A stretch of 32,000 nt of DNA from Nostoc punctiforme PCC 73102 (GCF_000020025.1 NC_010628.1:7950001-7982000), one strand, 5' to 3'; shown: positions 6,175 to 28,612, counted from the stretch's first letter. Notes: generated by a model not told the origin, from the sequence alone. Made by a program: numbers and translations.

Positions 6175-7488
6175 TTACAACTTCTGCCCTGCATAAATGG
6201 ATCGCACTTCACCATTACGGCGGATGACGGCTTCGCCATTACTAACCTCTACCAATGTCCAACCGCTTTGGCCAATGCTTTCACCCATATTGATGCGGCG
6301 AGTTACGCCATCAATTTTAAACAAAGCGGCAGATTTGTTACCTAACTCTAGCAATCCTTCTAGGGTATTACTCGGAGCAACTGCGATCGCAGTTGCCGGA
6401 TATACTTGTTCCTGGGTAATAGTTGGTTCTGACTCTGGCGCAAGTGCTGCACGTAATGGAACCACTGGTAATGCAGGTAGAGGCTTGGGTGTTTGCCGCA
6501 CAGTAATAGGTGCAGTTCGTCCAGCTATAGGTTTAAGTTCTGCTCGTACAGCCGCCGCTAACATATTGACGGTTACAGGCTTGGCAGCTTGTCGCACCGT
6601 ATTTAGGGCACTTTTCACCATGTTAGGTGGATATGCCTGCAATGCATTGGCAACTTGTGGTAGAAGTGTGGGACTACCAGGAATTGCTGGCAGCGCGTAG
6701 CGCATTGGCGACGGTGCTTGATAAACAGGAACATAGATCCGTTCAACAACGCTGCCAGAACGGTTAGAGGCTGGTGGTGTATTATTGGCCAGAAGTGGAA
6801 GTGGTGGTAAATTACCAGTTATTTGCCCGTTACCAAGGGCTATTTGATTAGTATTTGTCTGACTGGAGAATCCCGAACTGAAAGATTTTTGATTGCCTTT
6901 TAATTCTTGCTTGTCTATAACTGCCAACGCTCCTAGCATATAGTCAACCAAATCTGCCTCAATTTCTGTTTTTCCAGGCAATTGTGATTGCGTTTGCGGC
7001 GCTAGAAGAGCTTGCTGGGTCAAGTTGGGATTTAAAAGATATACGACTCCAGACTGTACCAAGTAGAGAATACCAGTGATCGCCACACCTAAAGTTGTTC
7101 CGACAATCAGCAGTTTGCCCAAAGTCCGACTGCTTTTTTGACGCTTTCTACTAACTGGTTTAATGGTGGTGTTATCAAAGACAACGGTACTCAAGTGCTT
7201 GTTGTTATTTTGAGTAACTGACTGTCCGTTTGGTAAGATAATCTGCGGTATCGTAACTGTTTGCAAAGGCACGTATTCTGGAGGCGAGTCGCGTCGAGCT
7301 TTGTTCTGCCTACCATGCCTAACGGTTTGAGAAGGCAGATTATCACTAACATCCAGAATGTAGTCGATATCGGCAAAGAGTTCATCCATGAGACCATCAG
7401 CATAGTTTTCTATCGACCAAGGCTCGTTGGCGATTAAGTCTTCTGATGGTTCTGGTACTATGAGACGGGTACTGGCTTCTTGTAACAT
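6175..7488 (-). CDS. proline-rich membrane-anchored hypothetical protein
   Basis: 437-aa ORF with an ATG at 7486-7488, one hydrophobic helix (LLIVGTTLGVAITGILYLV), a long P/A/Q-rich linker and a compact C-terminal beta-rich domain (GWTLVEVSNGEAVIRRNGEVRSIY) reminiscent of PilP/GspC-like domains. Confidence 0.6.
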   Translation of the reverse strand: MLQEASTRLIVPEPSEDLIANEPWSIENYADGLMDELFADIDYILDVSDNLPSQTVRHGRQNKARRDSPPEYVPLQTVTIPQIILPNGQSVTQNNNKHLSTVVFDNTTIKPVSRKRQKSSRTLGKLLIVGTTLGVAITGILYLVQSGVVYLLNPNLTQQALLAPQTQSQLPGKTEIEADLVDYMLGALAVIDKQELKGNQKSFSSGFSSQTNTNQIALGNGQITGNLPPLPLLANNTPPASNRSGSVVERIYVPVYQAPSPMRYALPAIPGSPTLLPQVANALQAYPPNMVKSALNTVRQAAKPVTVNMLAAAVRAELKPIAGRTAPITVRQTPKPLPALPVVPLRAALAPESEPTITQEQVYPATAIAVAPSNTLEGLLELGNKSAALFKIDGVTRRINMGESIGQSGWTLVEVSNGEAVIRRNGEVRSIYAGQKL

Positions 7489-12555: not shown

Positions 12556-12918
12556 TTACTTCACTTCGCTGGGTTCAAACTTTGTCACCTTACCTTTCTT
12601 AATCGCTACAATCACATCGTAGTGAGAACAATAAGCGAATGTGACATTATTAGCTTTGTTATAAAGGTTAACTACATGACCTGCACCACCTACCTGGATA
12701 CCAATTGGTTCTAAGTCAGCAAAAAAGAAACGACGCAGTTGATCGCCACTACCAATTTGACCCTTACTTTTAGTAAGCAAATCTAGTTTCTGCGCTACAG
12801 ACAATTCTTCGGCTGCCGATGCCTGCACTAATGACGGATTGATCGCTTTTAATGGTACGTCCCAAACTGTAAAAAAACCAACTAAAGCAAAACTTGTAAG
12901 TAAGGGTGCGAGTTTCAT
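12556..12918 (-). CDS. hypothetical secreted protein
   Basis: ORF 12556-12960. The internal ATG at 12918 gives MKLAPLLTSFALVGFFTVW..., a signal-peptide-like N-terminus. No family recognised. Confidence 0.5.
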   Translation of the reverse strand: MKLAPLLTSFALVGFFTVWDVPLKAINPSLVQASAAEELSVAQKLDLLTKSKGQIGSGDQLRRFFFADLEPIGIQVGGAGHVVNLYNKANNVTFAYCSHYDVIVAIKKGKVTKFEPSEVK

Positions 12919-15694: not shown

Positions 15695-16022
15695 CTTGTT
15701 TTCAACCCTTTGGATTTGCTCTTGTTGTCTAAGATGGGTTTTCTATGTTGTAGTATTAACTACGTGAAAATACCGTCATTATGGCGATTTAGAATACAAA
15801 AAATGCGTGCTACTGCACTCGATCAAAACCCTGCTAATCACCGAACTACGTTTATTTGACTACTAATCCGCGATTTTTGATTCCGTAAACATTGAATGAT
15901 TGTTGCAACTCTTAATCTTTTACTTACAAATTTCTCACCCGCACCTTGGTAGACTGAACTTTATACAATTGGATTATTGTGGGCTGTTACGCTTTAACAG
16001 AACATTAACCTTGGCTTTCTGG

Positions 16023-16077
16023 TGAGACAGTCCGGTCTTGGGGGTTTCCCCCATGAGGAACTGCCGAACCCGAAGGG
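16023..16077 (+). repeat. 55-nt structured mini-element in the acsF 5' leader, same family as the one at 17553-17608
   Basis: tgagacagtccggtcttgggggtttcccccatgaggaactgccgaacccgaaggg. The first 12 nt match the IS630-borne copy 10/12 and the last 19 nt match 18/19. It contains a ggggg-ttt-ccccc hairpin. Confidence 0.55.
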
Positions 16078-16115
16078 TCTACTTAAGATAATAAAGACGA
16101 AAGAGCAATCAAGAC

Positions 16116-17192
16116 ATGGTAGATTCCCTCAAAAAACCAGGCTTTGAAGAAATCCGGCCAGGGATTAAAGTCCCGGCAAAAGAAACCCTGTTAACACCTC
16201 GGTTTTATACTACCGATTTTGATGAAATGGCGCGGATGGATATCTCCGTCAATGAAGACGAGTTACAAGCCATTCTCGAAGAGTTCCGCACTGACTACAA
16301 CCGCCATCACTTTGTTCGGGATGCGGAGTTTGAGCAATCCTGGGATCATATTGACGGGGAAACTCGCAAATTATTCGTTGAGTTTCTAGAACGTTCCTGT
16401 ACAGCAGAGTTTTCGGGCTTTTTGCTATATAAAGAACTTGGCCGTCGCTTGAAAGGAAAAAGCCCCGTCTTGGCAGAGTGCTTTAACCTGATGTCACGGG
16501 ATGAAGCACGTCACGCTGGCTTTTTGAACAAAGCTTTGTCGGACTTTAATCTGTCTTTAGATTTAGGGTTTTTGACTAAGAGCCGCAATTATACCTTCTT
16601 TAAACCGAAATTCATCTTTTACGCTACTTATCTTTCTGAGAAGATCGGTTATTGGCGCTACATCACCATTTACCGCCATTTAGAAGCACATCCCGAAGAC
16701 CGGGTTTATCCAATCTTCCGGTTCTTTGAAAACTGGTGTCAAGATGAAAACCGCCACGGCGATTTCTTTGATGCCATCATGAAATCCCAGCCACAAATAT
16801 TGAATGATTGGAAAGCACGGCTGTGGAGTCGGTTCTTCCTGTTGTCGGTATTTGCGACAATGTATCTCAATGACATCCAACGCAAAGACTTTTATGCCAC
16901 CTTGGGATTGGATGCACGAGAATACGACATTCATGTAATTCAGAAGACTAACGAAAACGCCGGTCGCGTGTTCCCGCTAATGCTGGATGTAGAGAATCCT
17001 GAGTTTTATCAGCGATTGGATACTTGTATCAGCAATAACGAGAAGCTGGGTGCGATCGCTAATTCCAACACTCCCAAATTCTTGCAATTATTCCAAAAAC
17101 TGCCACTTTACATCTCCAATGGCTGGCAGTTATTACGGCTGTACCTGATGAAACCGATTGATACTGTTTCTGCTCAAGGGGCAGTTCGTTAA
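16116..17192 (+). CDS. acsF: magnesium-protoporphyrin IX monomethyl ester (oxidative) cyclase
   Basis: 358-aa ORF collinear with known AcsF proteins ([33 protein letters not shown]..., diiron motifs [10 protein letters not shown] and [10 protein letters not shown]). Confidence 0.95.
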
Positions 17193-17218
17193 TTTATAAC
17201 AGATTTGCGAAAGCTTTA

Positions 17219-17249
17219 GTGGTTCTGCTGATTGCAGAGCCACTTTTTT
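17219..17249 (+). terminator. rho-independent terminator of acsF
   Basis: gtggttctgc-tgatt-gcagagccac stem-loop (one G.U pair) followed by tttttt. Confidence 0.6.
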
Positions 17250-17552
17250 GTCTTAAATATTAGAGGTTAGCCGATTAGTACTGCGATCGCTAATTTGCTG
17301 GCAGGCAAAAATCGAATCTAATCAAAAAACTAGTAGTCTGCCAAGCTAACTTTGCTATGTTAAATTTGGATATAAACGCTCCATTTTTCGGCGAGCATCT
17401 TTGGTTTGAAAACCCCAATAAACACTAGCTTTTTGCTGATTACGTTTTTTCTCCCAAGCGGCAATCTCAGAAGTTAATGTTTCTGCATTAGGAATACGCC
17501 GTTCTAAACATTGGCGAGATAAAACAGATAATTCGATTTCTACCTGATTCAG

Positions 17553-17608
17553 CCCTTCGGGTTCGCCAGTTGCTTCAAGTCGGGGAACCCGCCCAACGCA
17601 CTGGCTCA
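17553..17608 (-). repeat. 56-nt structured mini-insertion inside the transposase gene
   Basis: On the minus strand: tgagccagtgcgttgggcgggttccccgacttgaagcaactggcgaacccgaaggg. Internal complementary pairs are gccagt/actggc and cgggttc/gaacccg. It lies between the TGG (W) and CTG (L) codons. Confidence 0.6.
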
Positions 17609-18101
17609 CCAAGAAGCGTGTTTAGGAGTATAGTGAAACTCTAACTTTTGAATAATTCGACGTGCTTCTTCTGGTGGAAAAACTTCATATAATGCATTGG
17701 GTGTATGAATATTCAAGTTATCAACTACTAAACGAATAACATCGGCATCTCGGTAGGAAACATCTACTAAATTTTTCATTTGTTTAGCAAAATCGGCTTT
17801 AGTTCGACGTTCTGTAACTTCGATATGCCGCCATCCAGCCAAGGGTTGAAAACATGCGAATAAATTTACTGTCCCGTTACGTTTATACTCAAAATCATAA
17901 CGTTCAGGTTGCTCTGGCTGTGGTGGCAAAGGAAGTCTTACTTCTTCTACTAATTGGTATGGACGTTCATCAAAGCAGACTACAGGGCGTTTAGGATCAT
18001 AAGGCTCATTGTATAAATCCAGCACATCTTCCATTCGGAAAACATATTCTGCGTTAACTTCAGGAATACACCATTGTTCTTTCAACCAAGGCTTAATTTC
18101 A

Positions 18102-18109
18102 TTTTTTTT
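18102..18109 (-). other. A8 slippery run, programmed -1 ribosomal frameshift site of the IS630 transposase
   Basis: T8 on the plus strand. The zero frame reads tta aaa aaa atg and terminates 6 codons later. The -1 frame reads through as KKNEIKPW without stops. Confidence 0.6.
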
Positions 18110-18605
18110 AAAGTTTGACGTACTGTTTCATCTGAGATTGAATCTATGATACCAACGTTCACTAAATGATCTGCTAATAATTGCATTGTCCAACGCACTC
18201 TTCCTTCTGGCGGATTAGAACAAGCTGTTGCAATCAAAAATGCTTCTTGCTTTTCATCTAATTTTTTATGTTTTGGTGGATGAACTTCATCCTTTAAAGC
18301 AAAATCTAACCCTCCAATGACAAATTTTTCTCGTATTCGTTGCACTGTTGCAACATGCGCTCTAACTATGCTAGCGATCGCTTGATCCGTTTCTCCTTCG
18401 GAAGCCATCAAAAGAATGTTTGCACGGCTTATGGTTCTTGCCTTATGCTTACCTTTCTTAATTATCGATTGCAGTTGGGAAACTTCATCTTCATTCAAGT
18501 CAACAATGTACTTTTTTGCCATGTTACACCCCGTTTTTGGCTATTTTACCAATTAGAGGTTTTACTTAGCAAAGTTACCTTGGTACACTACTAGAGGACA
18601 ATAGA

Positions 18606-18930
18606 GTTACATCAGGTTACATCGGTTATAACTGGTGCAACCCATATATAGTAAGGCTTTCAGCTAGTGGTTATAGAAAAGGTTACATCAGGTTACATTT
18701 TAGTAGAACAAATGTAACCGCTAGGAGATATACAGGGTAAGGCTTATAGCCATTAGGTTACATAGTTACATCTATTTTAGAGAATAGATATCACCCAACT
18801 ATCTACATAACAACTAATCAGGATTTTGATGTAACTATGTAACCTAATGGCTATAACCTAGACAGGATAAGGGATATAGAGGTTACATTCAGATGTAACC
18901 GGGATGTAACCAAGTGCTAATAATGTAACT
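18606..18930. repeat. iteron/operator array: 13 copies of (G/A)GTTACAT, 7 forward and 6 reverse, often in pairs 8-11 bp apart
   Basis: Forward copies start at 18605/18606, 18615, 18681, 18691, 18756, 18764 and 18881. Reverse copies (ATGTAAC[CT]) lie at 18712, 18829, 18837, 18893, 18904 and 18923. A 29-bp perfect inverted repeat at 18744-18772 / 18828-18856 embeds four of them. Confidence 0.75.
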
Positions 18931-19057
18931 CAAGTAGAGTTAGATCCTGACAATATAGCCTCAAATCCTTACTTGGTAAGCCCTTACCCTTGAATAAGTA
19001 CAATAAAGGTGCTAAGATAACAAAAGGGTTAAGTAAAAACCACTACTCGAACATATA

Positions 19058-19564
19058 ATGAACCCTCAGAACTCCTTTACTAACCCCTATCCTCTACAAG
19101 TGGCCCTAACAGACGCTCAATGGTATGGGTTTCTGGCTGAGGATAAGCTGAATAATCCCCAGACCTTCTATGACATCCACCCGGCACTCAGAGCCATCAT
19201 CAGGGAATGGGTACGCCTAAAAGTCAAACCAACTAAAACCATCAGTAGTCAGAGATACCTAAATGGTATCAAGAGAGCCTTTGGTACTCAAACTAAACTC
19301 TACGTATGGACGGGGGTTATCCTGGGGGCACTGTTGGAGGCAGGATACCGGGCTGAGTTAAGAGGTAACGACTTATGCCTTAACTGTTCCATTAGGAAGC
19401 CAAGTAACCCGTATACGGCTTGGGAGAAATATCGCGCTATAGCCCCTATTTACTCTGAATGGGTACTGGATACCCCCAAAGGCTACTGGCTCCCTGAGCT
19501 TTACGAAGGTATGGATAACATAGCGGCTAAGTATGATCAGAGAACTAGCGCCATCCGCGCCTAA
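19058..19564 (+). CDS. hypothetical protein of the islet (possible iteron-binding/replication or regulatory protein)
   Basis: 168-aa ORF with an ATG start, located 128 bp downstream of the iteron array. No family recognised. Confidence 0.5.
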   Translation: MNPQNSFTNPYPLQVALTDAQWYGFLAEDKLNNPQTFYDIHPALRAIIREWVRLKVKPTKTISSQRYLNGIKRAFGTQTKLYVWTGVILGALLEAGYRAELRGNDLCLNCSIRKPSNPYTAWEKYRAIAPIYSEWVLDTPKGYWLPELYEGMDNIAAKYDQRTSAIRA

Positions 19565-19653
19565 GATGCCCGACAGCGATCGTGAGGTCATTCACCAGAC
19601 TTACCAATGCCTGTAGCCCCTAAAATCCACAGTAAATCCCAGAGGTCACTTAG

Positions 19654-20079
19654 TTATTTCCTTGGGTTTCTGACATGGGGCACTGTCTCTAAAACTTCGT
19701 CGATGACTCTGAGTTGCTTATCAGTGTATGCATAAGATTTGTTCTTGAAATCTCCATTAGGGCCCTTACGGTTAACTCGACGTGGTTTGATGCCATAGAG
19801 TTCTACGAACTTCTTAACCACACGGACGGCTAAAAGGTGGAAATCTCCTTTGGAAACTACTATGTTTTCTTTATCTAAATACTCATTCAGGGTCACTAAG
19901 TCCCTAGCTTCTTCTTTGTCTGCATCATTGAACACGGAATCTGCCACGGCTAGAACAAACACATGTTCTTTCTTCAGGAGGTCTTCCAAGCGATCGATAA
20001 TCTGCTTTTTGGTGAGGTTTTCCAATAAAAATAACTCGTTTACCTCTGTGCTTGATGGGATGTTTAAATAAACTTGCAC
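19654..20079 (-). CDS. hypothetical protein of the islet
   Basis: 141-aa ORF with a GTG start, convergent with 19058-19564. No family recognised. Confidence 0.45.
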   Translation of the reverse strand: MQVYLNIPSSTEVNELFLLENLTKKQIIDRLEDLLKKEHVFVLAVADSVFNDADKEEARDLVTLNEYLDKENIVVSKGDFHLLAVRVVKKFVELYGIKPRRVNRKGPNGDFKNKSYAYTDKQLRVIDEVLETVPHVRNPRK

Positions 20080-20346
20080 GATTTTGATAGCCCCTTGCTT
20101 ACTTTATTAAGTACTTGCTTGCATCAAGTTATACCTAATACTAGCCTGGTTAACCCCGTGTGTCCACTTTACTTTGTTCGACTTCATTTATTACCCACAG
20201 CAAGCAACTAGAGACCCAACGTCGGGTTATCCTGGGGCTTCTAGTGGGTTAAAAAACACTTATTAATACGGCATCCTAAATAAGGCTTTAGAGGCTAAGA
20301 AGCCCCAAGGATAGTACTTTAATGGCACTTGGCGATCGCCATTAGT

Positions 20347-20382
20347 GATGTTTTATCACTAACCGATGTTTTATCGCTAACC
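20347..20382 (+). repeat. two tandem 18-bp iterons gatgttttatc(a/g)ctaacc
   Basis: 20347-20364 and 20365-20382 are identical at 17/18 positions. The first overlaps an agtgat/atcact inverted repeat. Confidence 0.65.
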
Positions 20383-20680
20383 TTGACCTATAAGGGTTTC
20401 AGGGCACAGAGAAGAAGACTGTCAGCCTAGAGGTAAAACCCTTAACTGGTAAGGGTTCCAAGGGTGTCACCATGCGAACTTGAAGCAAAATCTAAGTCAA
20501 CTAATACTCGGCTGGGTCTAAGTCTTATCCTGTAACCATCCTGGGTGTCTTAGGGTTTATTTATCAGCCCCCTAAGTCAACTGAAAGTTATATTTACCCT
20601 CATTGGATGCTGCATATACTAACCCTTGCCCTGTAACCATCCTAGCGATTTTAAGGGTCATTTAGCTGTCATTAAGTGAA

Positions 20681-20701
20681 CTGGAGGTCTAAGACCTCCA
20701 G
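20681..20701. promoter_or_regulatory. 21-bp perfect palindrome ctggaggtct-a-agacctccag upstream of the first RHH gene
   Basis: The 10-bp arms are exact reverse complements, about 120 bp upstream of the ATG at 20820. Candidate operator or hairpin. Confidence 0.4.
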
Positions 20702-20819
20702 TAGCTCAGTTGCGCAATATTACCATCAGTTACCTAGCTGACCTCCCCTTGGCGATCGCACTTGGGCGTTTAGAAATAACTTGACTTATTTAGTTATAGA
20801 AGTAAGTTCTATAACTGAA

Positions 20820-21080
20820 ATGTCTAATCTGATTCAAATGGCTAGAGACGTTAACGGTTACACCAAGGGTAAATGTAGACCCGCAACTAACATCATCAGT
20901 ATCATCAATGACCAACCAAGGCTACAGAAGGACAAGCGCCTAATGGTTCCTATTAGCCATGAGGAACTAGAAGCCGCCCATAGCTTTGCTAGCTCCCTTG
21001 GTGTCTCTACCAGCTATCTGGTCAGACAGTTACTCAAGACCGCTATCGAGTCTCAATGTGAGGTTGGTTATGGCAGATAA
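20820..21080 (+). CDS. ribbon-helix-helix (CopG/Arc-like) protein
   Basis: The C-terminal KRLMVPISHEELEAAHSFASSLGVSTSYLVRQLLKTAI fits a strand-helix-helix pattern. The ATG at 20820 is preferred over the TTG at 20781. The stop overlaps the next gene by 11 nt. Confidence 0.5.
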   Translation: MSNLIQMARDVNGYTKGKCRPATNIISIINDQPRLQKDKRLMVPISHEELEAAHSFASSLGVSTSYLVRQLLKTAIESQCEVGYGR

Positions 21081-22890
21081 CAGAATCCAAGTCACCCTGA
21101 CGGCTAGGGATCTCCTTAGCCCCCAGCTAGGACAAATCAGAAGTAATATTGAGGCTCTAGGGGCTAGTGCTAATATCCGGGTAGGTCTTAGTGACATCAG
21201 GAACCTCGGTCAGGCTGACTTGACCAGATTAAGAACACAGATGGATTCCTTAAAGCCACCCGATAGCTCTCAGGGGTTCATGGGCGCTGCACTATTTGGT
21301 AACTTAGGAGCCTCAGCGATTACCCAGGGTATACAGATGGTAACTCAGGGTATCCAAGCATCTATAGGTGCTATCCAGTCAGCCGCTAGGACTCAAATAA
21401 ATGACTTGGCGCTAGCAGGGAACTTAGCAACGCAGTTGGGGGTAAACTTTGGTAAAGCCAAGGGGTTAGTTGCTGATACCTCTATTGAAATATCTAAAAT
21501 GGCTGAGGCTTTACCAGGGGAAAATGCTGATTACAATGCTATCTTTTCGCAGATATCCGCCACAGTTGCTGGTAATGCCAAAGGTGATGTAGGTAAGTTT
21601 AAAGAAGAGTCTATGGAGCTTACTAAGCGCTTTGGTGTTCTGTCTTCTATCCGTGGACTTGATGCCAATCAATCGGGGTCAGCAATCAACAGGGCGTTAG
21701 CTGGAACTATGGGGCTGTCTGAAGTATTTCAGATTGATATTTTCCAGAAATACCCAATGCTTCAAAGTAGCGTCAGAGATCAGCTAAAAGCCATTGGTAA
21801 AAGTACTGAAGACTGGAAAAGTTTATCAAATGATATGCGATCCAAAATATTACTAACCGGGGCTAAAGGTGCGGTTTCTGATGATACAGTAGCGTCATTT
21901 AGCGGTACTGTGGACTCAATGATCGCTGAGGCTAAATCATCGCTATTTGATGAACGTCGGGGTATCTTTGGGTTCTTAAGAACCTTGGGGTCAATGGGAG
22001 GAAGGTCAACCCTTGATAGCGTTCAAGGCGCTATGCAGTCCTTTAAAGCTTTATTAGAATCCTTGGGATCTATAAAAGGTTTCTCAGTTGACCCGATGGA
22101 AGGCGTAATCAGTGTAATGGACTGGTTCTCTGATCTTGCTGGGTCGGTTAATGGGGTATTAAATGGTGAAAACAGCAGCACTATAACTTCATTTTTAACT
22201 AATACGACTACCGGGTTCTTTGAGGGTTTTAACAACTTAGTAAACCTGGGGCTTAAGGGTATTTCTAATACTAACTGGGGAAACTTAGGTAAACAAGTTG
22301 GGGTCTATATAGGCGACGGGTTTACTAAGATTTTTACTAGGACAGACTGGGGCGCTATATCCCAAATCCTTGTCAAAAGTTTACAAGGTCTGGGCGATTT
22401 TACCTTGAACTTTATCATGGGAGCCGTTGAAGGCAACTTCAAAGAACTAGGGAATGCTTTCAACAGGGTCAAAGATGCGGTTATGACCTGGGCTAACGAT
22501 ACCCTGAAGGTTTTTAATAAACCTGGGGAACTTTTAGAAAACCTCAAAACTAGACCTTTGGCTGCTATTGGGGATACTTTAAAATCCGTAGGCGGTCGAT
22601 TAAATCCCTTGGGTGATAATGGGGTTGTAGGAGCCTTAAAGAACGGCGGAGGGTTCATAGGAGGGATGTTAAATAGTAACCCTATAACGCCTTTGAATCC
22701 TAACAGTTCTAACAGTCCTATTATACCCTTGGAAATCCCTAAACCTCCTGATAATAATAAACAGGCTTTTGTAGCACCCCACGTAATCATAAATGGCACT
22801 CATATGCAAAACCCCCAAGAAATAGCTAATGCTGTAATGGGAGCGATTAATGAGGCTTACGGAAAGTTTAAGGAGGGAAGTTTAGCCTAG
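21070..22890 (+). CDS. phage tail tape-measure-like protein (G/S/N/A-rich, predicted helical)
   Basis: 606 aa from the ATG at 21070 (gagg lies 6 nt upstream). The N-terminus MADNRIQVTLTARDLLSPQLGQIRSNIEAL and segments such as VLSSIRGLDANQSGSAINRALAGTMGL resemble TP901-type tape-measure cores. This is a similarity judgement from memory only. Confidence 0.45.
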   Translation: MADNRIQVTLTARDLLSPQLGQIRSNIEALGASANIRVGLSDIRNLGQADLTRLRTQMDSLKPPDSSQGFMGAALFGNLGASAITQGIQMVTQGIQASIGAIQSAARTQINDLALAGNLATQLGVNFGKAKGLVADTSIEISKMAEALPGENADYNAIFSQISATVAGNAKGDVGKFKEESMELTKRFGVLSSIRGLDANQSGSAINRALAGTMGLSEVFQIDIFQKYPMLQSSVRDQLKAIGKSTEDWKSLSNDMRSKILLTGAKGAVSDDTVASFSGTVDSMIAEAKSSLFDERRGIFGFLRTLGSMGGRSTLDSVQGAMQSFKALLESLGSIKGFSVDPMEGVISVMDWFSDLAGSVNGVLNGENSSTITSFLTNTTTGFFEGFNNLVNLGLKGISNTNWGNLGKQVGVYIGDGFTKIFTRTDWGAISQILVKSLQGLGDFTLNFIMGAVEGNFKELGNAFNRVKDAVMTWANDTLKVFNKPGELLENLKTRPLAAIGDTLKSVGGRLNPLGDNGVVGALKNGGGFIGGMLNSNPITPLNPNSSNSPIIPLEIPKPPDNNKQAFVAPHVIINGTHMQNPQEIANAVMGAINEAYGKFKEGSLA

Positions 22891-22960
22891 TCTAGATGCC
22901 CCCAATACTGCTGTTTGACTTTGGTTGACTTAATAAGTGATAAGGACAGAGACATTACCA

Positions 22961-23239
22961 ATGGAAAAGATTAAGAAGACCAAGCAAACAGCGGTTAGAT
23001 TTGACCAGTCTACCTGGGAATGGTTAGAGCAAGAATCCCTGAGAACTGGTAAGACTCCCTCGGCGTTACTTAGAGAAGGTGTTGAGTTACTTAAGGCTGA
23101 GGTGAGAGTACTGGCTGACCTCAAGGCACAGTTTGAGGCTTCTGGGGTTGCTTATCCGTCTATGAAGACCCAGACAGCCACAGGGATTAGACAGTTGCCA
23201 CTTAGGGGCTTTGAAGTTAACCAAACAGCCAACAGATGA
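22961..23239 (+). CDS. ribbon-helix-helix (CopG/Arc-like) protein
   Basis: MEKIKKTKQTAVRFDQSTWEWLEQESLRTGKTPSALLREGVELL fits a strand-helix-helix pattern and is followed by a coiled tail. The ATG at 22961 is preferred over the GTG at 22937. Confidence 0.5.
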   Translation: MEKIKKTKQTAVRFDQSTWEWLEQESLRTGKTPSALLREGVELLKAEVRVLADLKAQFEASGVAYPSMKTQTATGIRQLPLRGFEVNQTANR

Positions 23240-23320
23240 GACTAGGGGGCACATCGGTAGTAATACAGCCTAAAGTCAACTAATGTTTGACTGAATCTAG
23301 GAAACTCAATGTTTCCCTAG

Positions 23321-23482
23321 ATGGCTAAAGTTATCCGTAATGGTAAAGTAGTTACCTTTAATCCCAATAAGTACCCTAGAGGGTCACACGGTAGATTCAA
23401 AGAAACTCCTGATGCACCTAAAGTCACCCGTGGGGTTCAGTTAACTAGTAAATATTGGCTGAGTTATTGCCAAGCACCTTAA
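23321..23482 (+). CDS. possible 53-aa basic small protein
   Basis: Manual translation gives MAKVIRNGKVVTFNPNKYPRGSHGRFKETPDAPKVTRGVQLTSKYWLSYCQAP. It is preceded by the near-palindrome ctaggaaactcaatgtttccctag. It is below the ORF-track cutoff. Confidence 0.3.
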   Translation: MAKVIRNGKVVTFNPNKYPRGSHGRFKETPDAPKVTRGVQLTSKYWLSYCQAP

Positions 23483-23552
23483 AGTACCCTAAGCTTAAGG
23501 CAGCTTTAAGGCAGATTAAGTCAGTTTTAGACTACTAGATTTGTCTGGCCTA

Positions 23553-23624
23553 AGCCCGTGACGAGGATTGAACTCGTGACCTCACCCTTACCAAGGGTGT
23601 GCTCTACCACTGAGCCACACGGGC
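23553..23624 (-). tRNA. trnT: tRNA-Thr (anticodon GGU)
   Basis: The reverse complement GCCCGTGTGGCTCAGTGGTAGAGCACACCCTTGGTAAGGGTGAGGTCACGAGTTCAATCCTCGTCACGGGCT folds as a 72-nt cloverleaf with anticodon loop TTGGTAA. No encoded CCA. Confidence 0.9.
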
Positions 23625-23712
23625 GAAATTATGATTTTGAGTTTTCAGCTAAAAGTTAAAATGCTGGGAGTTTTGATGCTTACCCAGACATTATAACTTA
23701 TAACTTCGTAAG

Positions 23713-23798
23713 TGGTGGGCCGGGCTGGATTTGAACCAGCGTAGGCGCTAGCCAACGGATTTACAGTCCGTCTCCATTAACCACTCGGACACCGACCC
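23713..23798 (-). tRNA. trnY: tRNA-Tyr (anticodon GUA), long variable arm, CCA encoded
   Basis: The reverse complement GGGTCGGTGTCCGAGTGGTTAATGGAGACGGACTGTAAATCCGTTGGCTAGCGCCTACGCTGGTTCAAATCCAGCCCGGCCCACCA is 86 nt, with anticodon loop CTGTAAA. Confidence 0.9.
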
Positions 23799-23922
23799 GA
23801 TTTGTCTCACGATTTAAAATCTTAGCACCACCTTTTATAATTAGCAAGTGGTTAGAAAAAATAACTTGTGGGTAGAGATCGCGACAAAACTGCGTCTCTA
23901 CCATCTGGATAAAAAATACTGG

Positions 23923-24897
23923 TTATACGCTCATCTCCAGCATTCGTTGCATTGGTCGTAGTGCAGCAAGGCGAATATCCTCTAACATGGTAATTTCGGG
24001 AGTGCGATTTTTCATTGCCCAGTAGAGCTTTTCTAAGGTGTTTAACCGCATAAACGGACATTCGTTACAAGCACAGTTATTCATCGGCGGTGCAGGAATA
24101 AAATGCTTGTCAGGAGCTAGTTTTTGCATTTGGTGAATGATTCCAGGCTCCGTAGCAACGATAAATTCTTTGGTGGGGCTGTTTTGACAATACTTGAGTA
24201 AGGCGGCTGTGGAGCCAATAAAGCTGGCGTGACGCAATACACTACTTTCACATTCTGGATGTGCGATCGCCTCTGCTTCGGGGTGGGCAATTTTTAACTG
24301 AACAATTTTCTTTTCTGAAAAGGTTTCATGAACAACACAGCTACCTTGCCATAGCACCAAATCTCGTCCAGTCTGTTCCATGACGTACCGCCCCAAATTC
24401 CGATCTGGGGCAAAAATAATCGGCTGTTCCTTTGGTATCTGCTGCACAATTTTCACAGCGTTGGAGCTAGTACAAATAATATCGCTCATTGCCTTGATAT
24501 CAGCAGAGCAGTTGATGTAAGACACCACCAAATGATCTGGATGCGCTGCCTTAAAAGCTGCAAATGCCTCTGGTGGACAACTGTCGGCTAAAGAACAACC
24601 AGCATTCAAATCTGGTAAAAGTACTAATTTATCGGGATTAAGTATCTTTGCTGTTTCTGCCATGAAGTGAACGCCAGCAAAGACGATCACATCCGCATTG
24701 GTTTTTTCGGCGGCTCTTGCTAGTTGTAATGAATCCCCAATAAAGTCTGCAATATCCTGAATATCTGGCTCTTGATAATAATGCGCCAGGATAACGGCGT
24801 TGAGTTCTTTTTTAAGACTCTGAATCGCGGCAAACAAATCTAGTGGTAGTTCACCCAGTTGGGTGTTTTCTCGTTGAGCTAGTGCAGTGGTAAACAC
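23923..24897 (-). CDS. nadA: quinolinate synthase
   Basis: 324-aa ORF with [34 protein letters not shown], conserved Cys residues and HPEC, all typical of NadA. Confidence 0.95.
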
Positions 24898-25046
24898 AGT
24901 TTAGGGGTGCTTTATGTTGCAAATGTATATGCTGTGGATTCAATTATAGTAGTTTTTACCAAAAATAGTGGACGGTTGATATTTTGGGGTTGTGTCCAAA
25001 TCGGGCTGAGTTTCATATCCTGGAGATAGACGGCAAGGAAAGTGGC

Positions 25047-25976
25047 ATGACCAGTCAAGAAACTCAATCGATAAACCTCAAAATTGCTGTAGTTGGAGAT
25101 ATTCACGACCAATGGGAAGTGAAAGATGGCGTTGCACTCAAGCATTTGGGTGTTGACTTAGTGCTGTTTGTCGGGGATTTTGGCAATGAATCGGTGGAAG
25201 TGGTCAGAGCGATCGCATCTCTCGATATTCCCAAAGCAGCCGTGATGGGCAACCACGATGCTTGGTACACCGCCACCGAATGGGGACGCAAAAAGGCTCC
25301 TTATGACCGCTCTAAGGAAGACTGGGTACAGGATCAACTCGATTTATTAGGTTCGTCCCATGTTGGTTACGGTAAGTTGGATTTTCCCGCTTGGAATTTA
25401 ACTGTAGTGGGGGGTCGTCCCTTTACCTGGGGTGGCCCAGAGTGGAAATTCGCGGAAATCTGTAAAGAACGTTACGGTGTGACGAGTTTGGAAGAATCCG
25501 CCGATCGCATCTTCAAAGCAGTCAAAAGTGCCGCTTACGAGACGATTATATTTTTGGGTCACAATGGGCCTAGTGGGTTAGGCGATCGCCCCGAAGACCC
25601 CTGCGGCAAAGACTGGCACCCAATTGGCGGCGATTTTGGCGATCCAGATTTGGGCGAGGCGATTTCTCAAGCCTTGACTGCTGGTAAAACCATTCCTCTG
25701 GTGACATTTGGTCACATGCACCGCGATTTACGCCATACCAAGAAGGTGCAGCGCAAGCCCATCTTTAGAAGTCCAGAGGGGACAATTTACTTGAATGCGG
25801 CTAGTGTCCCCAGGATTGTGGAAGATGGTGGCGAGAAGTTGCGTAACTTTTCCATTGTCACCGTAGAGGCGGGTGTGGTTTCGCAAGTTTCCCTAGTTTG
25901 GGTGGGGAATGACTTTCAGGTGGCTAAGGAGGAAATTTTGTATGAGCGATCGCATCCAGTAGTGCAATCTGCGTAG
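25047..25976 (+). CDS. calcineurin-like metallophosphoesterase (cyanobacterial TIGR04168-type)
   Basis: Motifs VVGDIHD, FVGDFGNE, MGNHDAWY, FLGHNGP and FGHMH are present. The ATG at 25047 (MTSQETQ...) is preferred over the upstream alternative start at 24984. Confidence 0.8.
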   Translation: MTSQETQSINLKIAVVGDIHDQWEVKDGVALKHLGVDLVLFVGDFGNESVEVVRAIASLDIPKAAVMGNHDAWYTATEWGRKKAPYDRSKEDWVQDQLDLLGSSHVGYGKLDFPAWNLTVVGGRPFTWGGPEWKFAEICKERYGVTSLEESADRIFKAVKSAAYETIIFLGHNGPSGLGDRPEDPCGKDWHPIGGDFGDPDLGEAISQALTAGKTIPLVTFGHMHRDLRHTKKVQRKPIFRSPEGTIYLNAASVPRIVEDGGEKLRNFSIVTVEAGVVSQVSLVWVGNDFQVAKEEILYERSHPVVQSA

Positions 25977-26076
25977 ATAATAGGGTATAGTATGATCTGT
26001 CAAGTTTAGTGCTAACCAACAAAAGCGCCTGAATAGCGTCTGAAACTAGGATAAGCACAAGTTTGACAGATTTACT

Positions 26077-26161
26077 GGAGAGGTGGCAGAGTGGTCGATT
26101 GCGTCCGACTTGAAATCGGATGAGGCTAAAACCTCCGGGAGTTCGAATCTCCCCCTCTCCG
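26077..26161 (+). tRNA. trnS: tRNA-Ser (anticodon UGA), long variable arm
   Basis: GGAGAGGTGGCAGAGTGGTCGATTGCGTCCGACTTGAAATCGGATGAGGCTAAAACCTCCGGGAGTTCGAATCTCCCCCTCTCCG is 85 nt, with anticodon loop CTTGAAA. No encoded CCA. Confidence 0.9.
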
Positions 26162-26535
26162 TTGAATACTTTGTGAATACTAGCAGCCAATATCATCATG
26201 ATTATATCTTGATGATATTGTTCAGTTGCCAGATGAAACCTAATATTTGACAAGAGCTTTAAATATATAGGTATTTTTTAACACATCTACTGATGCCGGG
26301 TTTTTGGCTGGTGTTACTAAGTATAGAAGGCGATAATAATTGCAAAAGGCTTAAGCTTGACTATATGTTTAGAAGCTTAAGTAATGTAAAGCACCTCACA
26401 CTTAAAAGGTTATTTATAATTTATACAATATAATTGAATTTTCCTATTGATACCAAGCCGCCACAAACAGGCTTTTCTACATATAAGGCAGATAGGAAAT
26501 TTTCAACTTTGTAAAATAAGGTAACAAATTTAAGT

Positions 26536-28545
26536 ATGCAAGAACAAATAAAACCTGGTTTCCACGAACAAGTGCAACGAAAATTATACATATTGACTAA
26601 CGAAGAACAGAAGATTCTTCAGAAATTTGGTAATGAATGGTTTGTAACTAGACTAGATGGTTTGAAAATTGGGGACAGAAGTGAATACAAGTATGCCTTG
26701 ATTAAAGCACCTAGAAATTATCAGGAGCTTTTTAATTTTGAAAGAGAGTTAATCATCATTTTTAGTGATTATGAATCTTTTCAGCCTAGATCAACTGACG
26801 CGATTGATGCTGTTTCAGATCAGCTTCAAGATTTAAGAATAGATAAAATCTGTAGTATTATGTTAAGTAAAGATGATAAAATAGAAGAAAAAATAAGAGA
26901 TATTTTAAAAGAATCTCAAGAATCTCAGGTTATAGTTCCAATATCTTATAGCGAAATCTTAAATAATCACAGTGATTCTTATTTTTTAAGGAATAAATTT
27001 AAAACCAATTTTTATACAAGGGACTTGTTTGATTTTCAATCTCCATTAAAAAAAGATTTATACTTTTTTGGGAGAAGCGATATTATTAATAAAATAGTAA
27101 ATAGACATTTTTCTAATGAAAACTCAGGGCTATTTGGATTACGGAAAACAGGAAAGACTTCTGTAATTTTTGGTATTCAAAGGGCACTAGATAAAATAGG
27201 CGCAAAATCAATTTTGATAAGTTGCGATGATACCAGTTTTCAACAAAGAAGATGGAATAAATGCTTACATTATATAATTGTAGAAATAAATAAAAAATAT
27301 AAATTAAATTTACCATTGCAAGCAGAAGATCAATATACAGAAGAAAATGCTTCTCAAATTTTTGCTGAAGAAATTTGTAAAATATATCATATTTTTCAAG
27401 AAAAAAGTATTTTAATCATATTTGATGAAATCGAACGTATAACTTTTAACATTTCTAGTGTTACACATTGGGAAAAGAAATTTGATTTTATATTTTTCTG
27501 GCAAACATTAAGAGCTAATTTTCAAAAATTAAATAATGTTTTCTCTTATTTAATAGTAGGTACTAACCCAGTCTGTATAGAACAATCAAGTATTTTTGGT
27601 AAAGATAATCCTATTTTTCACTCAATACCAATTGAATACTTGCCAAGATTTGATGTACCACAAACAAGAGATATGGTTAGAAAACTTGGTAGAATTATGG
27701 GATTGCAATTTGAGGAAATAATTTATTCAAAATTAACGGAAGATTATGGTGGACATCCATTTTTAATTAGACAAGTATGTAGTTTAATCCATAGGCTCAA
27801 CAATCAACATCTACCAATTACAGTAGATAGAATTACGTATGATAAGGCTAAAAATGAATTTGATAAAAATTATGCTTCTAAATATATTGAGATGATGGTT
27901 AGTGTCTTAAGCGAATTTTATCCTGACGAGTACGATTTACTAGAATATTTAGCCATTGGCGATCTTAACTTTTTTAATCAATATGCTATTGAGTCCACAG
28001 AATATACTAATCATTTGAAAGGTTATGGAATTATCAGTCAAACTAGAGATGAATATGATTTTAAAATAGATGCAGTCAAACAATATTTAATACAAAAAAA
28101 TAAATATAAAAAGGTTAATACAACCAATGAAGATATGTTAAATGAAATATCTCAAAGAAGAAATGCTTTAGAACCAAAGTTAAGAAAAATAGTGCGTACC
28201 CAGTTAAAGGCAAAATATGGAGAGAACCAAGCAAGAGATAAATTACTACTTTCTTTTGGTAAAGAAGAACAAAAAAAGTATAATCATTTAGCTTATAAAG
28301 ATTTGTTCGATCCTGATAAAGTAAATATATATTTTGAAAATCTAAAAAATATAATTAAAAAAGACTGGTCAACTTTTGAACACATTTTTTCAAGGAAACA
28401 AGAGGAGTTTAATTTGAAAATGGAAGCTATAAATAAGTATAGGGCTGATGCACATGCAAAACAGATGACACCGGATAGAATGGGTCACTTTAGAGACTGT
28501 ATGACATGGATTGAAAACCATGTAAACGATTTTTTAGAAGACTAA
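26536..28545 (+). CDS. P-loop NTPase (STAND/AAA, Arch_ATPase-like) with unknown N-terminal domain and C-terminal HEPN-like module
   Basis: 669-aa ORF. FFGRSDIINKIV...GLFGLRKTGKTSV is Walker A (G201-T208). SILIIFDEIE is Walker B (D297 E298). GGHPFLIRQV is a STAND/ORC-like motif. The C-terminal ...LEPKLRKIV...NIIKKDWSTFEHIF...INKYRADAHAKQMTPDRM... has an R-x3-H dyad, resembling Swt1-type HEPN. Confidence 0.75.
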   Translation: MQEQIKPGFHEQVQRKLYILTNEEQKILQKFGNEWFVTRLDGLKIGDRSEYKYALIKAPRNYQELFNFERELIIIFSDYESFQPRSTDAIDAVSDQLQDLRIDKICSIMLSKDDKIEEKIRDILKESQESQVIVPISYSEILNNHSDSYFLRNKFKTNFYTRDLFDFQSPLKKDLYFFGRSDIINKIVNRHFSNENSGLFGLRKTGKTSVIFGIQRALDKIGAKSILISCDDTSFQQRRWNKCLHYIIVEINKKYKLNLPLQAEDQYTEENASQIFAEEICKIYHIFQEKSILIIFDEIERITFNISSVTHWEKKFDFIFFWQTLRANFQKLNNVFSYLIVGTNPVCIEQSSIFGKDNPIFHSIPIEYLPRFDVPQTRDMVRKLGRIMGLQFEEIIYSKLTEDYGGHPFLIRQVCSLIHRLNNQHLPITVDRITYDKAKNEFDKNYASKYIEMMVSVLSEFYPDEYDLLEYLAIGDLNFFNQYAIESTEYTNHLKGYGIISQTRDEYDFKIDAVKQYLIQKNKYKKVNTTNEDMLNEISQRRNALEPKLRKIVRTQLKAKYGENQARDKLLLSFGKEEQKKYNHLAYKDLFDPDKVNIYFENLKNIIKKDWSTFEHIFSRKQEEFNLKMEAINKYRADAHAKQMTPDRMGHFRDCMTWIENHVNDFLED

Positions 28546-28612
28546 AACTTAACCTCTGTTATTAAATGTGGAATACTTTCTTATAAAGCAAAAAGCATGA
28601 TCGCTCCTCTCT

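Follow-up and report, generated by a model that had tools for sequence, protein, structure and literature searches.

A degraded islet beside tRNA-Thr in Nostoc punctiforme is probably the remnant of a family of small satellite-like elements that integrate into tRNA genes

The tape-measure proteins (TMPs) of phage satellites were recognised only in 2025-2026, in PLE11, in the EPIPs and in some cf-PICIs (PMC12987554, PMC12822802). In PLE11, it was shown experimentally that Rta blocks the TMP of the helper phage and that the TMP of the satellite takes its place in chimeric tails (PMC12987554), and a TMP strategy has also been proposed for the mycobacterial EPIPs (PMC12822802). We analyzed a stretch of 32,000 nucleotides of Nostoc punctiforme PCC 73102 (NC_010628.1, 7950001-7982000; hereafter the window, with positions counted from its first letter), which contains an islet of about 5 kb of the chromosome between a copy of the insertion sequence (IS) IS630 and the 3' end of a tRNA-Thr gene. 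A previous reading made from the sequence alone (the sequence-only reading) had proposed that this islet is either the decayed end of a prophage or a compact satellite or plasmid-like element, and we found that the evidence combines both ideas. Our comparisons with related sequences suggest, with a probability of roughly 0.8, that the islet is the decayed remnant of a family of tRNA-integrating satellite-like elements: it would be what is left, degraded and immobile, of a single member (or of two in tandem) of a Nostocales family whose elements measure 10-15 kb. A limited check of the literature did not reveal any report of such elements in Nostoc, or of phage satellites in filamentous cyanobacteria in general.

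Four other Nostoc genomes present complete elements of 11-15 kb at the same tRNA-Thr/nadA locus: L001 (a 29-kb metagenome contig), L006 (Nostoc sp. P12641), L136 (Nostoc sp. DedQUE04) and L008 (N. punctiforme NIES-2108). These elements are bounded by direct repeats of 50-96 nt corresponding to the 3' part of the tRNA. Each of them carries a tyrosine integrase, a replication module, a homologue of the islet's open reading frame (ORF) ORF141 or another small gene, a ribbon-helix-helix (RHH) gene directly 5' of a homologue of the 606-aa gene of the islet, and a conserved right end; the integrase of the complete relatives stands next to attL. L001 shares the right flank of the window (tRNA-Thr, tRNA-Tyr, nadA, a metallophosphatase gene and tRNA-Ser) and possesses 53-nt direct repeats of the 3' part of tRNA-Thr at 1703-1755 and 12690-12742. 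The interval between the repeats encodes, in this order, the tyrosine integrase, a 143-aa protein, two RHH proteins, a 1039-aa helicase-type protein and ORF145 (the ORF141 homologue, on the opposite strand), followed by a spacer of about 900 bp, the homologue of RHH1 (95% identical), the 606-aa homologue and two small genes. The repeats are 50 nt long and 14.8 kb apart in L006 and 96 nt long in L008, and L136 is the closest relative of the islet (80% identity for the 606-aa protein). Related elements of 10-11 kb were identified at tRNA-Val (L005) and tRNA-Cys (L007), and one contig of 10.5 kb (L141) extends from att core to att core. Phage_integrase genes were found in all seven (L001, L005, L006, L007, L008, L136 and L141), and two copies of the att core lie 10-15 kb apart in L001, L005, L006, L007 and L008. 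The locus is therefore polymorphic: all five of the five genomes compared differ from one another at tRNA-Thr, which does not fit a segment conserved across the genus.

The replication module varies among these elements. L001 and L006 encode the initiator CyRepA1 (the 1039-aa protein of L001 reaches 203.3 bits against the NCBIfam model NF042913, whose cut-off is 200), L005, L008 and L141 encode VapE (E = 6e-63), and L136 and L007 possess a gene of 294-297 aa with an RHH-like N-terminus. We detected no CyRepA1 homologue in the window. This comparison shows that members of the family enter tRNA genes by means of tyrosine integrases and that their replication module is exchangeable. The terms "phage/plasmid-like" and "satellite" used by the sequence-only reading fit the complete relatives, which pair a CyRepA1 or VapE replicase with a tape-measure homologue; the islet copy, however, is not a working compact element. 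Iteron arrays adjoin the replication gene in L005, L007 and L136, the elements in which arrays were looked for. In L005, 9-bp iterons of the types GATAGGACA and GATGGGACA occur in both orientations immediately 3' of the VapE gene (6193-6459), as in the origins of SaPI/PICI elements. In L136 (6912-7673) and L007 (4469-5010), palindromic GGTATGATACC-type repeats are arranged in units of 40-55 nt located 5' of the 294-297-aa gene; these arrays and this gene constitute a putative third kind of replication/regulation module.

The islet shares its gene order with the complete elements: ORF141, spacer, RHH1, 606-aa gene, RHH2, the 464-aa gene when present, right end and tRNA-Thr. The order proposed as a mark of a simple prophage remnant was thus found embedded in complete elements, but these are small and are no conventional prophages. 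The integration target is tRNA-Thr(GGU), on the minus strand at 23624-23553 (predicted by ARAGORN; 70.2 bits for the Rfam tRNA family), and the att core consists of the 49 nt at 23552-23600 that form the 3' part of this tRNA. Scanning the window for this core revealed a single copy, the attR, even when identity was lowered to 62-76%; attL was found neither in the islet nor in the rest of the 32 kb, and no integrase was found in the islet. At 23460-23551, the window retains the conserved right end of the element, with 92-94% identity to its counterparts in L001, L006 and L136. It contains TTAAGGCAG-type tandem repeats at 23495-23527, and the same motif is present beside attL in L136; these repeats are putative arm-type sites of the integrase.

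The alignment with L136 reveals what the islet has lost on its right side. Positions 20761-23435 of the window align with 9647-12430 of L136 and positions 23460-26163 with 15993-18714, and these two flanking alignments imply that the window lacks about 3.56 kb. In L136, the missing segment comprises the greater part of the 464-aa gene and, in addition, a 73-aa gene, another integrase gene and two small genes. The 53-codon ORF described by the sequence-only reading is present on the plus strand (23321-23482), but it is the truncated 5' end of a gene of 464-488 aa rather than a gene in its own right: the deletion junction falls at about 23436-23459, and tblastn matched ORF53 to the first ~38 codons of the 464-aa gene of L136 and to 36 codons of the 488-aa gene of L006. 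The 464-aa family is 37-40% identical to the gene that follows the portal gene in a prophage, L004.

The left side of the islet is also disrupted. Homology with the relatives reaches its left limit in the 3' flank of ORF141 (19508-19653): positions 19508-20167 are 70.6% identical to L136 8899-9574, and positions 19561-20167 are 73% identical to 836-1459 of L138, a Logan contig of the same organism. The homology with L136 ends near position 19508, within the final codons of ORF168, and everything to the left of this point is unique to the strain. The left flank shared by L136, L001 and L008 (tRNA-Arg, PDDEXK_5, DUF7469 and neighbouring genes) is absent from the window, and we found this ancestral flank on the Logan contigs L138 and L139, where it is 94% identical to L136 1-3650. 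A second and more decayed copy of the element stands there beside tRNA-Arg(UCU), PDDEXK_5 and DUF7469 (L138 1-1700 and L139). It comprises a 47-codon remnant of an integrase, fragments of the 464-aa gene and a truncated ORF141 paralogue of 125 aa (P0167, 74% identical), which is also found on the N. punctiforme chromosome; it ends in the same right-end/att junction as the islet, the last 30 nt of the element right end on L138 being identical to window 23530-23559. The flank and the remnants on L138 and L139 indicate that the genome holds two decayed copies and that the ancestral hotspot has been split. We infer from these alignments that the element was cut when the chromosome was rearranged or suffered a deletion at IS630 or close to it, and the present left border of the islet, formed by IS630 followed by the acsF terminator, is a breakpoint. 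The lack of attL and of an integrase, the truncated gene and the broken left border all indicate that the "integrase-less" character of the islet reflects decay and not design.

The 606-aa gene (21070-22890, plus strand) is the part of the islet that links it to phages. Its product could be aligned over its full length with 15 homologues, and its close homologues (about 16) are all from Nostoc or Trichormus. A profile search retrieved 523 cluster representatives at E <= 1e-3, with family members down to E = 1e-33. We tested 10 distant members, and nine of them match the PHROG annotation "tail length tape measure protein" (with best E-values between about 1e-10 and 1e-20 for most of them); of 38 members sampled evenly, 11 match PHROG families of TMPs, and all annotated matches belong to the tail/baseplate category. 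Gene position leads in the same direction. The order in L140 is TMP homologue, a 218-aa gene, a Phage_base_V spike, a 116-aa gene and Baseplate_J, and the Phage_base_V gene also comes after the 606-aa homologue in L004 and L002. The AlphaFold2 model of the protein is helical throughout and contains no strand (pLDDT of 48, with a confident region at 150-270 only), and TMPs and minor tail proteins are its best matches in a Foldseek search of viral structures, none of them at E <= 0.001. The conservation with phage TMPs extends over the full length and includes both termini. The assignment of the 606-aa protein to the phage tail tape-measure family is well supported, transitively through these homologues and by gene position. 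The NikA-like RHH gene located upstream had made a relaxase a candidate function for this protein; we rejected it because the model is all-helical, no relaxase family is matched and the family is one of phage TMPs.

Since one homologue is found in a full-size prophage, we considered whether the islet might be the leftover end of a tailed prophage at tRNA-Thr that lost its head, tail, lysis and lysogeny genes and retained its TMP. Prophage L004 encodes portal, major capsid, tail-tube-like, HK97 gp10-like and gpV-like proteins, and is 100% identical to a 46.4-kb viral contig of IMG/VR that ends at tRNA-Ala. Over its full length, the islet protein shares 50% identity with the protein that occupies the TMP position in this prophage, the family of ORF53 and the 464-aa gene is also represented there after the portal gene, and decay is evident in the window. 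In all of IMG/VR, two contigs encode a relative of the 606-aa protein, namely the 46-kb prophage and L135 (25% identical); no element of the family was recognised there, L135 being left unexamined. However, the tape-measure homologue and the 464-aa family are the only features that the islet has in common with the 46-kb prophage (L004/L134), and its gene order is that of the small att-bounded elements and not that of the prophage, in which the TMP gene precedes baseplate genes and has no RHH gene 5' of it. An RHH or NikA-like gene lies directly 5' of the TMP gene in eight of eight element copies (the window, L001, L005, L006, L007, L008, L136 and L141) and overlaps it in five of the eight, whereas in none of the three phage contexts does an RHH gene directly precede the TMP gene. 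Moreover, none of seven independent element copies (10-15 kb, distributed over three tRNA targets) has a capsid, terminase or baseplate gene, yet each possesses an integrase, a replicase and an intact TMP gene. No capsid, terminase or lysis gene was recognised in the complete relatives, and searches of the window and of the relatives examined with Pfam, PHROGs and NCBIfam identified no terS, cos/pac or sid/cpm-like sequence, many of their small ORFs being unannotated. An origin from the end of a full-size prophage appears highly improbable in view of these differences, and the decayed remnant of a small tRNA-integrating element remains our preferred explanation.

We further analyzed the selective constraints on the conserved genes. 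The TMP gene of the window presents dN/dS values of 0.13-0.17 (0.13 relative to L136), which indicates purifying selection, and the values for RHH1 are 0.11-0.26. The dS of the TMP gene relative to L136 (0.93) is about four times that of nadA (0.23; 23923-24897), while the dS of RHH1 (0.20) is similar to that of nadA. This difference indicates that the element evolved by mosaic exchange and not by simple vertical descent.

RHH1 (20823-21080, plus strand) overlaps the start of the TMP gene by 11 nt: the 606-aa gene begins with an ATG at 21070, and RHH1 stops at 21080, in agreement with the overlap that had been described. RHH1 is 92-95% identical to its homologues in L136, L001 and L006, with which it shares its ATG start. 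RHH2 lies on the plus strand at 22961-23239, with an alternative GTG start at 22937, and has homologues in L136 (88%) and L006 (52%, on the opposite strand) and paralogues in L005, L007 and L008. The two small genes described by the sequence-only reading are present, but their assignment as RHH proteins comes from sub-threshold Pfam matches only: DUF6364 (E = 0.015) and DUF6290 for RHH1, and NikA-like (E = 0.09) for RHH2, the L006 homologue of which matches RHH_3 at E = 0.009. In the relatives, small genes at equivalent positions present precomputed matches to NikA-like, given with no qualifier, and to RHH_5, which are weak, as well as hmmscan matches to RHH_1 and RHH_3 below the Pfam cut-off. 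A gene with a KilA-N domain (E = 2e-14) lies between the TMP gene and the RHH2 homologue in L006 (11825-12532) and in no other element. This insert, together with the strand of the L006 RHH2, opposite to that of the window and L136, indicates that local inversions or module swaps occur.

The RHH1-TMP operon is divergent from ORF141 (19654-20079, minus strand), which encodes a small protein conserved in the family. Homologues of ORF141 occupy the same position in L001 (52%), L006, L136 (61%) and L005 (40%), and its eight relatives in the databases are all from Nostoc, including the second, truncated copy in the same genome. The AlphaFold2 model built with these eight homologues (pLDDT of 69) matched no fold of the PDB, and sequence searches of the PDB with ORF141, ORF168 and the TMP profile returned nothing. 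The three-way alignment of the divergent control region (20080-20822) with L001 and L006 showed that about 90 bp beside ORF141 and about 60 bp beside RHH1 are conserved and that the middle is variable. A palindrome (TTTAGTTATAGAA/TTCTATAACTGAA) is found at 20789-20819, on the conserved RHH1 side and over the RHH1 start. The variable middle carries short repeats and two HIP1 sites, and no Rfam family was detected in the region. The description of this segment as a repeat region of about 700 bp with no ORF was accurate: the longest ORF in 20080-20780 has 45 codons, and the same interval contains two copies of an 18-bp tandem repeat and two copies of a 46-nt repeat (74% identical).

The sequence-only reading had also taken the HIP1 sites as a sign of an element adapted to cyanobacteria. 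Both sites exist, at 20332-20339 and 20752-20759 (one position from those initially given), but the interpretation was not upheld: the islet contains two sites in 5 kb and its flanks 19 in 27 kb. HIP1 is uninformative here because it is not enriched over the flanks and because both sites lie within the variable spacer. All the features that the sequence-only reading listed were found at the exact coordinates or at most 1 nt away. Its convergent ORF pair corresponds to ORF168 (19058-19564, plus strand) and ORF141 (20079-19654, minus strand), and its iteron array was recovered between IS630 and tRNA-Thr. Likewise, domain searches with Pfam, PHROGs, NCBIfam and PADLOC detected no integrase, terminase, capsid or replication domain in the islet; nothing was above threshold in these four databases for any of the six islet proteins.

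The iteron array (18606-18929) contains 13 exact copies of GTTACAT on both strands and represents a putative origin or operator of a replication module. The entire window contains 16 copies, for an expectation of 4.4 +/- 2.1. The array presents dyad symmetry, with seven copies in its left half (six on the plus strand) and six in its right half (five on the minus strand), and perfect inverted repeats of 29 bp (18744-18772 and 18828-18856) surround a 55-bp spacer, with 70-73% A+T. A match to the Rfam let-7 family was observed on this inverted repeat (18740-18859; 38.5 bits for a gathering threshold of 53.5); we rejected this let-7 precursor match as an artefact of the long hairpin, which is not an RNA gene. 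The array has no counterpart in any of the relatives compared and is unique to this strain, and scanning IMG/VR for the iteron pattern yielded more than 120 chance-like and uninformative matches. ORF168 is an orphan situated directly 3' of the iterons. Among 5.8 billion proteins, it matched only itself, and it has no match in Pfam, NCBIfam, PADLOC or the PDB; a weak match to phrog_9576 was found (E = 0.0012). Its last 19-27 codons overlap DNA that is conserved with L136 and is unannotated there. ORF168 is possibly a replication or iteron-binding gene of a module variant, or no real gene. By comparison with the exchangeable modules of the relatives, we infer that the GTTACAT iterons and ORF168 form a strain-specific variant of the replication module.

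This organization raises the question of whether the islet could be functional as it stands, that is, an integrase-less satellite or plasmid that replicates with the GTTACAT iterons and ORF168 and relies on helpers for everything else, including excision. ORF141, RHH1, the TMP gene and RHH2 are intact, with the TMP gene under purifying selection; the symmetric iterons lie directly 5' of ORF168, an arrangement similar to the modules of iterons and replication gene of the relatives; and the right end and the att core are intact. However, the 32 kb contain only one att core, so that site-specific excision would lack a substrate even if an integrase were provided in trans. In addition, ORF53 is truncated and an integrase was lost with the 3.56-kb deletion, no domain could be detected in the orphan ORF168, whose 3' end covers conserved non-coding DNA, and the left border abuts the terminator of a housekeeping gene and an IS. 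Finally, dN/dS integrates past history and is no proof of present function. Of all the explanations that we considered, a functional islet is the one to which we give the least credence. With a single att core and no integrase, the window copy would be unable to excise; its four intact genes (ORF141, RHH1, TMP and RHH2) may still be expressed.

The IS at the left border (17330-18594, minus strand) lies outside the element. It possesses inverted repeats of 35 bp (17330-17364 and 18560-18594; 86% complementary), minus-strand ORFs with HTH_32 (E = 9e-16) and DDE_3 (E = 7e-17) domains, and a TA at both junctions, within CTAG. It thus combines the features that define the IS630 family: a DDE_3 transposase with an N-terminal helix-turn-helix, terminal inverted repeats and a TA duplication. 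The transposase reading frame (17355-18522, minus strand) is interrupted twice, giving ORFs of 146, 159 and 85 aa in differing frames, which reflects either programmed frameshifting or an inactive copy. IS630 is multicopy in this genome, as indicated by Logan contigs that carry acsF and stop at the edge of the IS. An IS-mediated deletion or inversion is not demonstrated by these data, since a TA on both sides is what a simple insertion is expected to leave and a 2-bp duplication cannot tell the cause. A similarity of about 10 nt between the terminal sequence of IS630 and 23529-23542 was judged to be due to chance. Inside the complete element of L001 (7917-8084), we observed a 55-codon fragment of an IS630-type DDE transposase, which indicates that IS630 insertions are recurrent in this element family. 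The acsF terminator (17218-17244) ends 86 bp before IS630. It was the exception in our scan for promoters and terminators, which otherwise gave counts no higher than shuffled sequence.

Several observations weigh against the interpretation of the islet as a decayed satellite-like element. The rearrangement was deduced from short Logan contigs and not from a finished chromosome, and the TA on both sides of IS630 fits a simple insertion. Neither the iterons nor ORF168 found a homologue in any search, so both could be parts of something other than the element. The TMP of the window itself matches none of the tape-measure models of Pfam, PHROG or NCBIfam. L006, L008 and L136 carry two integrases and may be composites, such that a "complete element" is not cleanly defined. 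No small terminase, cos/pac site or gene redirecting capsid size was recognised, and the satellite interpretation draws on gene content, size and analogy.

With these points in mind, we propose a mechanism by analogy with described satellites. Int would excise the element from the tRNA gene, and its own Rep would replicate it from the iterons. Packaging would then be carried out by a baseplate-bearing tailed helper of the L004/L140 kind, and the element would supply its own TMP to the hijacked tail of the helper; the RHH gene would control the TMP or act together with it. Alternatively, the elements might be integrative plasmids that behave as satellites. We consider such a satellite mechanism to be an even bet at best for the family. 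The more specific proposal is held tentatively and at somewhat longer odds: these elements would be undescribed phage satellites of Nostocales of 10-12 kb, with sites at tRNA-Thr, tRNA-Val and tRNA-Cys, interchangeable CyRepA1 or VapE initiators with cognate iterons, and an RHH-coupled TMP as their only virion-type hallmark, which would rebuild or re-measure the tail of a baseplate-bearing helper, and the islet would be the fossil of one of them, with its RHH-TMP cassette preserved.

A different lifestyle could account for the same genes. The elements might be integrative plasmids or defence islands with no phage transfer, in which the TMP homologue acts against phages, for instance as a decoy that poisons tail assembly or blocks genome injection, and the remnant would have been kept because it is useful. 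The type-A members use CyRepA1, a bona fide replicase of cyanobacterial plasmids (PMC10079941), no packaging genes were found, interference of islands and satellites with tail assembly is documented (PMC11364771, PMC12987554), and the TMP gene is intact in a copy that has lost mobility. On the other hand, no PADLOC model matches any of the genes tested, and conservation with phage TMPs over the full length is what would be expected of a structural substitute. We regard this decoy or defence-island explanation as unlikely, and both the prophage end and the functional integrase-less islet are less likely than it is. The decayed remnant of a satellite-like element is thus the reading that we retain.

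Additional searches and neighbouring loci complete this description. Comparing the whole islet by blastn to the plasmids of PLSDB and the phages of INPHARED produced no match, and an empty site was sought by exact look-up of the acsF protein, which returned only short contigs ending at the IS. The Rfam scan of the islet detected just two tRNAs and the spurious let-7 match. An overlapping gene pair was observed in L005 (3398-4184), L007 (10976-11726), L008 (2332-3115) and L141 (2319-3102); it consists of an 83-87-aa protein of the RHH2 family followed by a protein of 165-179 aa with no Pfam or PADLOC match, and looks like a toxin-antitoxin-type cassette of the VapE-type elements. Further right in the window, the synteny with L001 breaks after the 3' end of tRNA-Ser(UGA) (26076-26162) and resumes at 28591. 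The 2.4-kb insert located there (26173-28591) has 25-29% G+C and a single 669-aa ORF (26536-28545) with no Pfam match, and L001 carries three other genes in its place. This insert is probably a second variable spot seeded by a tRNA.

The islet itself is an ordinary remnant, of a kind that is routine in a Nostoc genome of 8 Mb. It is of value because it points to a coherent set of small tRNA-integrating elements of Nostocales that carry a plasmid replicase or VapE and a TMP and nothing else of a virion. The genes of the N. punctiforme islet also gain an evolutionary annotation as an element remnant with a truncated gene and an attR. If the satellite interpretation is true, a further phylum would be added to those in which tails are hijacked by TMP substitution, RHH and TMP would offer a minimal system for study, and part of the strain variation beside tRNA-Thr, tRNA-Arg and tRNA-Ser in Nostoc would be explained.

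Finally, we compared these elements to the known systems that they most resemble. Among the satellites of Vibrio cholerae, PLE11, and likewise PLE-like elements and cf-PICIs with a putative tmp (Nature 2026, PMC12987554), share with them an integrated state, an integrase, their own replication and their own TMP, and PLE11 also has a gene for a small protein functionally linked to the TMP. PLE11 differs in that it parasitises a lytic myovirus and has many further genes, among them those for a tail assembly chaperone and a baseplate hub. The Nostoc elements encode only the TMP (with, in some, the 464-aa family), their upstream gene is RHH-like and not Rta-like, and there is no sequence similarity. 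The EPIPs of Mycolicibacterium (bioRxiv 2025, PMC12822802) are a proposed class of TMP-encoding satellites whose particles have an altered tail length; in contrast to the Nostoc elements, they are actinobacterial, unrelated in sequence, and carry a serine integrase and genes for a small terminase, a scaffold and a head-tail adaptor (PMC12822802).

The resemblance to P4-like satellites and PICIs (SaPI type) lies in the size of 10-15 kb, the insertion at tRNA genes or conserved sites, the tyrosine integrase, the incomplete virion gene set, the primase-helicase (VapE or P4 alpha-like) with an adjacent iteron origin, and the small divergent regulators. In the Nostoc elements, no sid/psu/delta-type, terS, ppi or cpm-type genes are recognisable, the TMP is the sole structural hallmark, and some use CyRepA1. 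The tycheposons of Prochlorococcus (10.1101/2020.12.28.424599) likewise target tRNA genes (including Thr-ggt, Arg-tct and Ser-tga), encode tyrosine recombinases and primase/helicase modules, and form tandem arrays and degenerate remnants that build islands beside tRNA genes; some of them are PICI-like. They belong to marine picocyanobacteria, are defined by a recombinase clade and have no reported TMP hallmark; the likeness is one of lifestyle and tRNA targets. The CyRepA1 plasmids (pSYSA Slr7037 and others; PMC10079941, PMC9978351) have their replication initiator in common with L001 and L006, but they are autonomous and possess neither a tRNA-specific integrase nor a TMP, and the window copy has lost the CyRepA1 gene. 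The element family is not demonstrably a member of the P4/PICI, PLE or tycheposon families. What its complete members share with satellites is that they are small and integrated, encode an integrase and a replication module of their own and lack a full set of virion genes. Of these features and genes, the putative origin, the regulators and the TMP are all that the window copy has retained.

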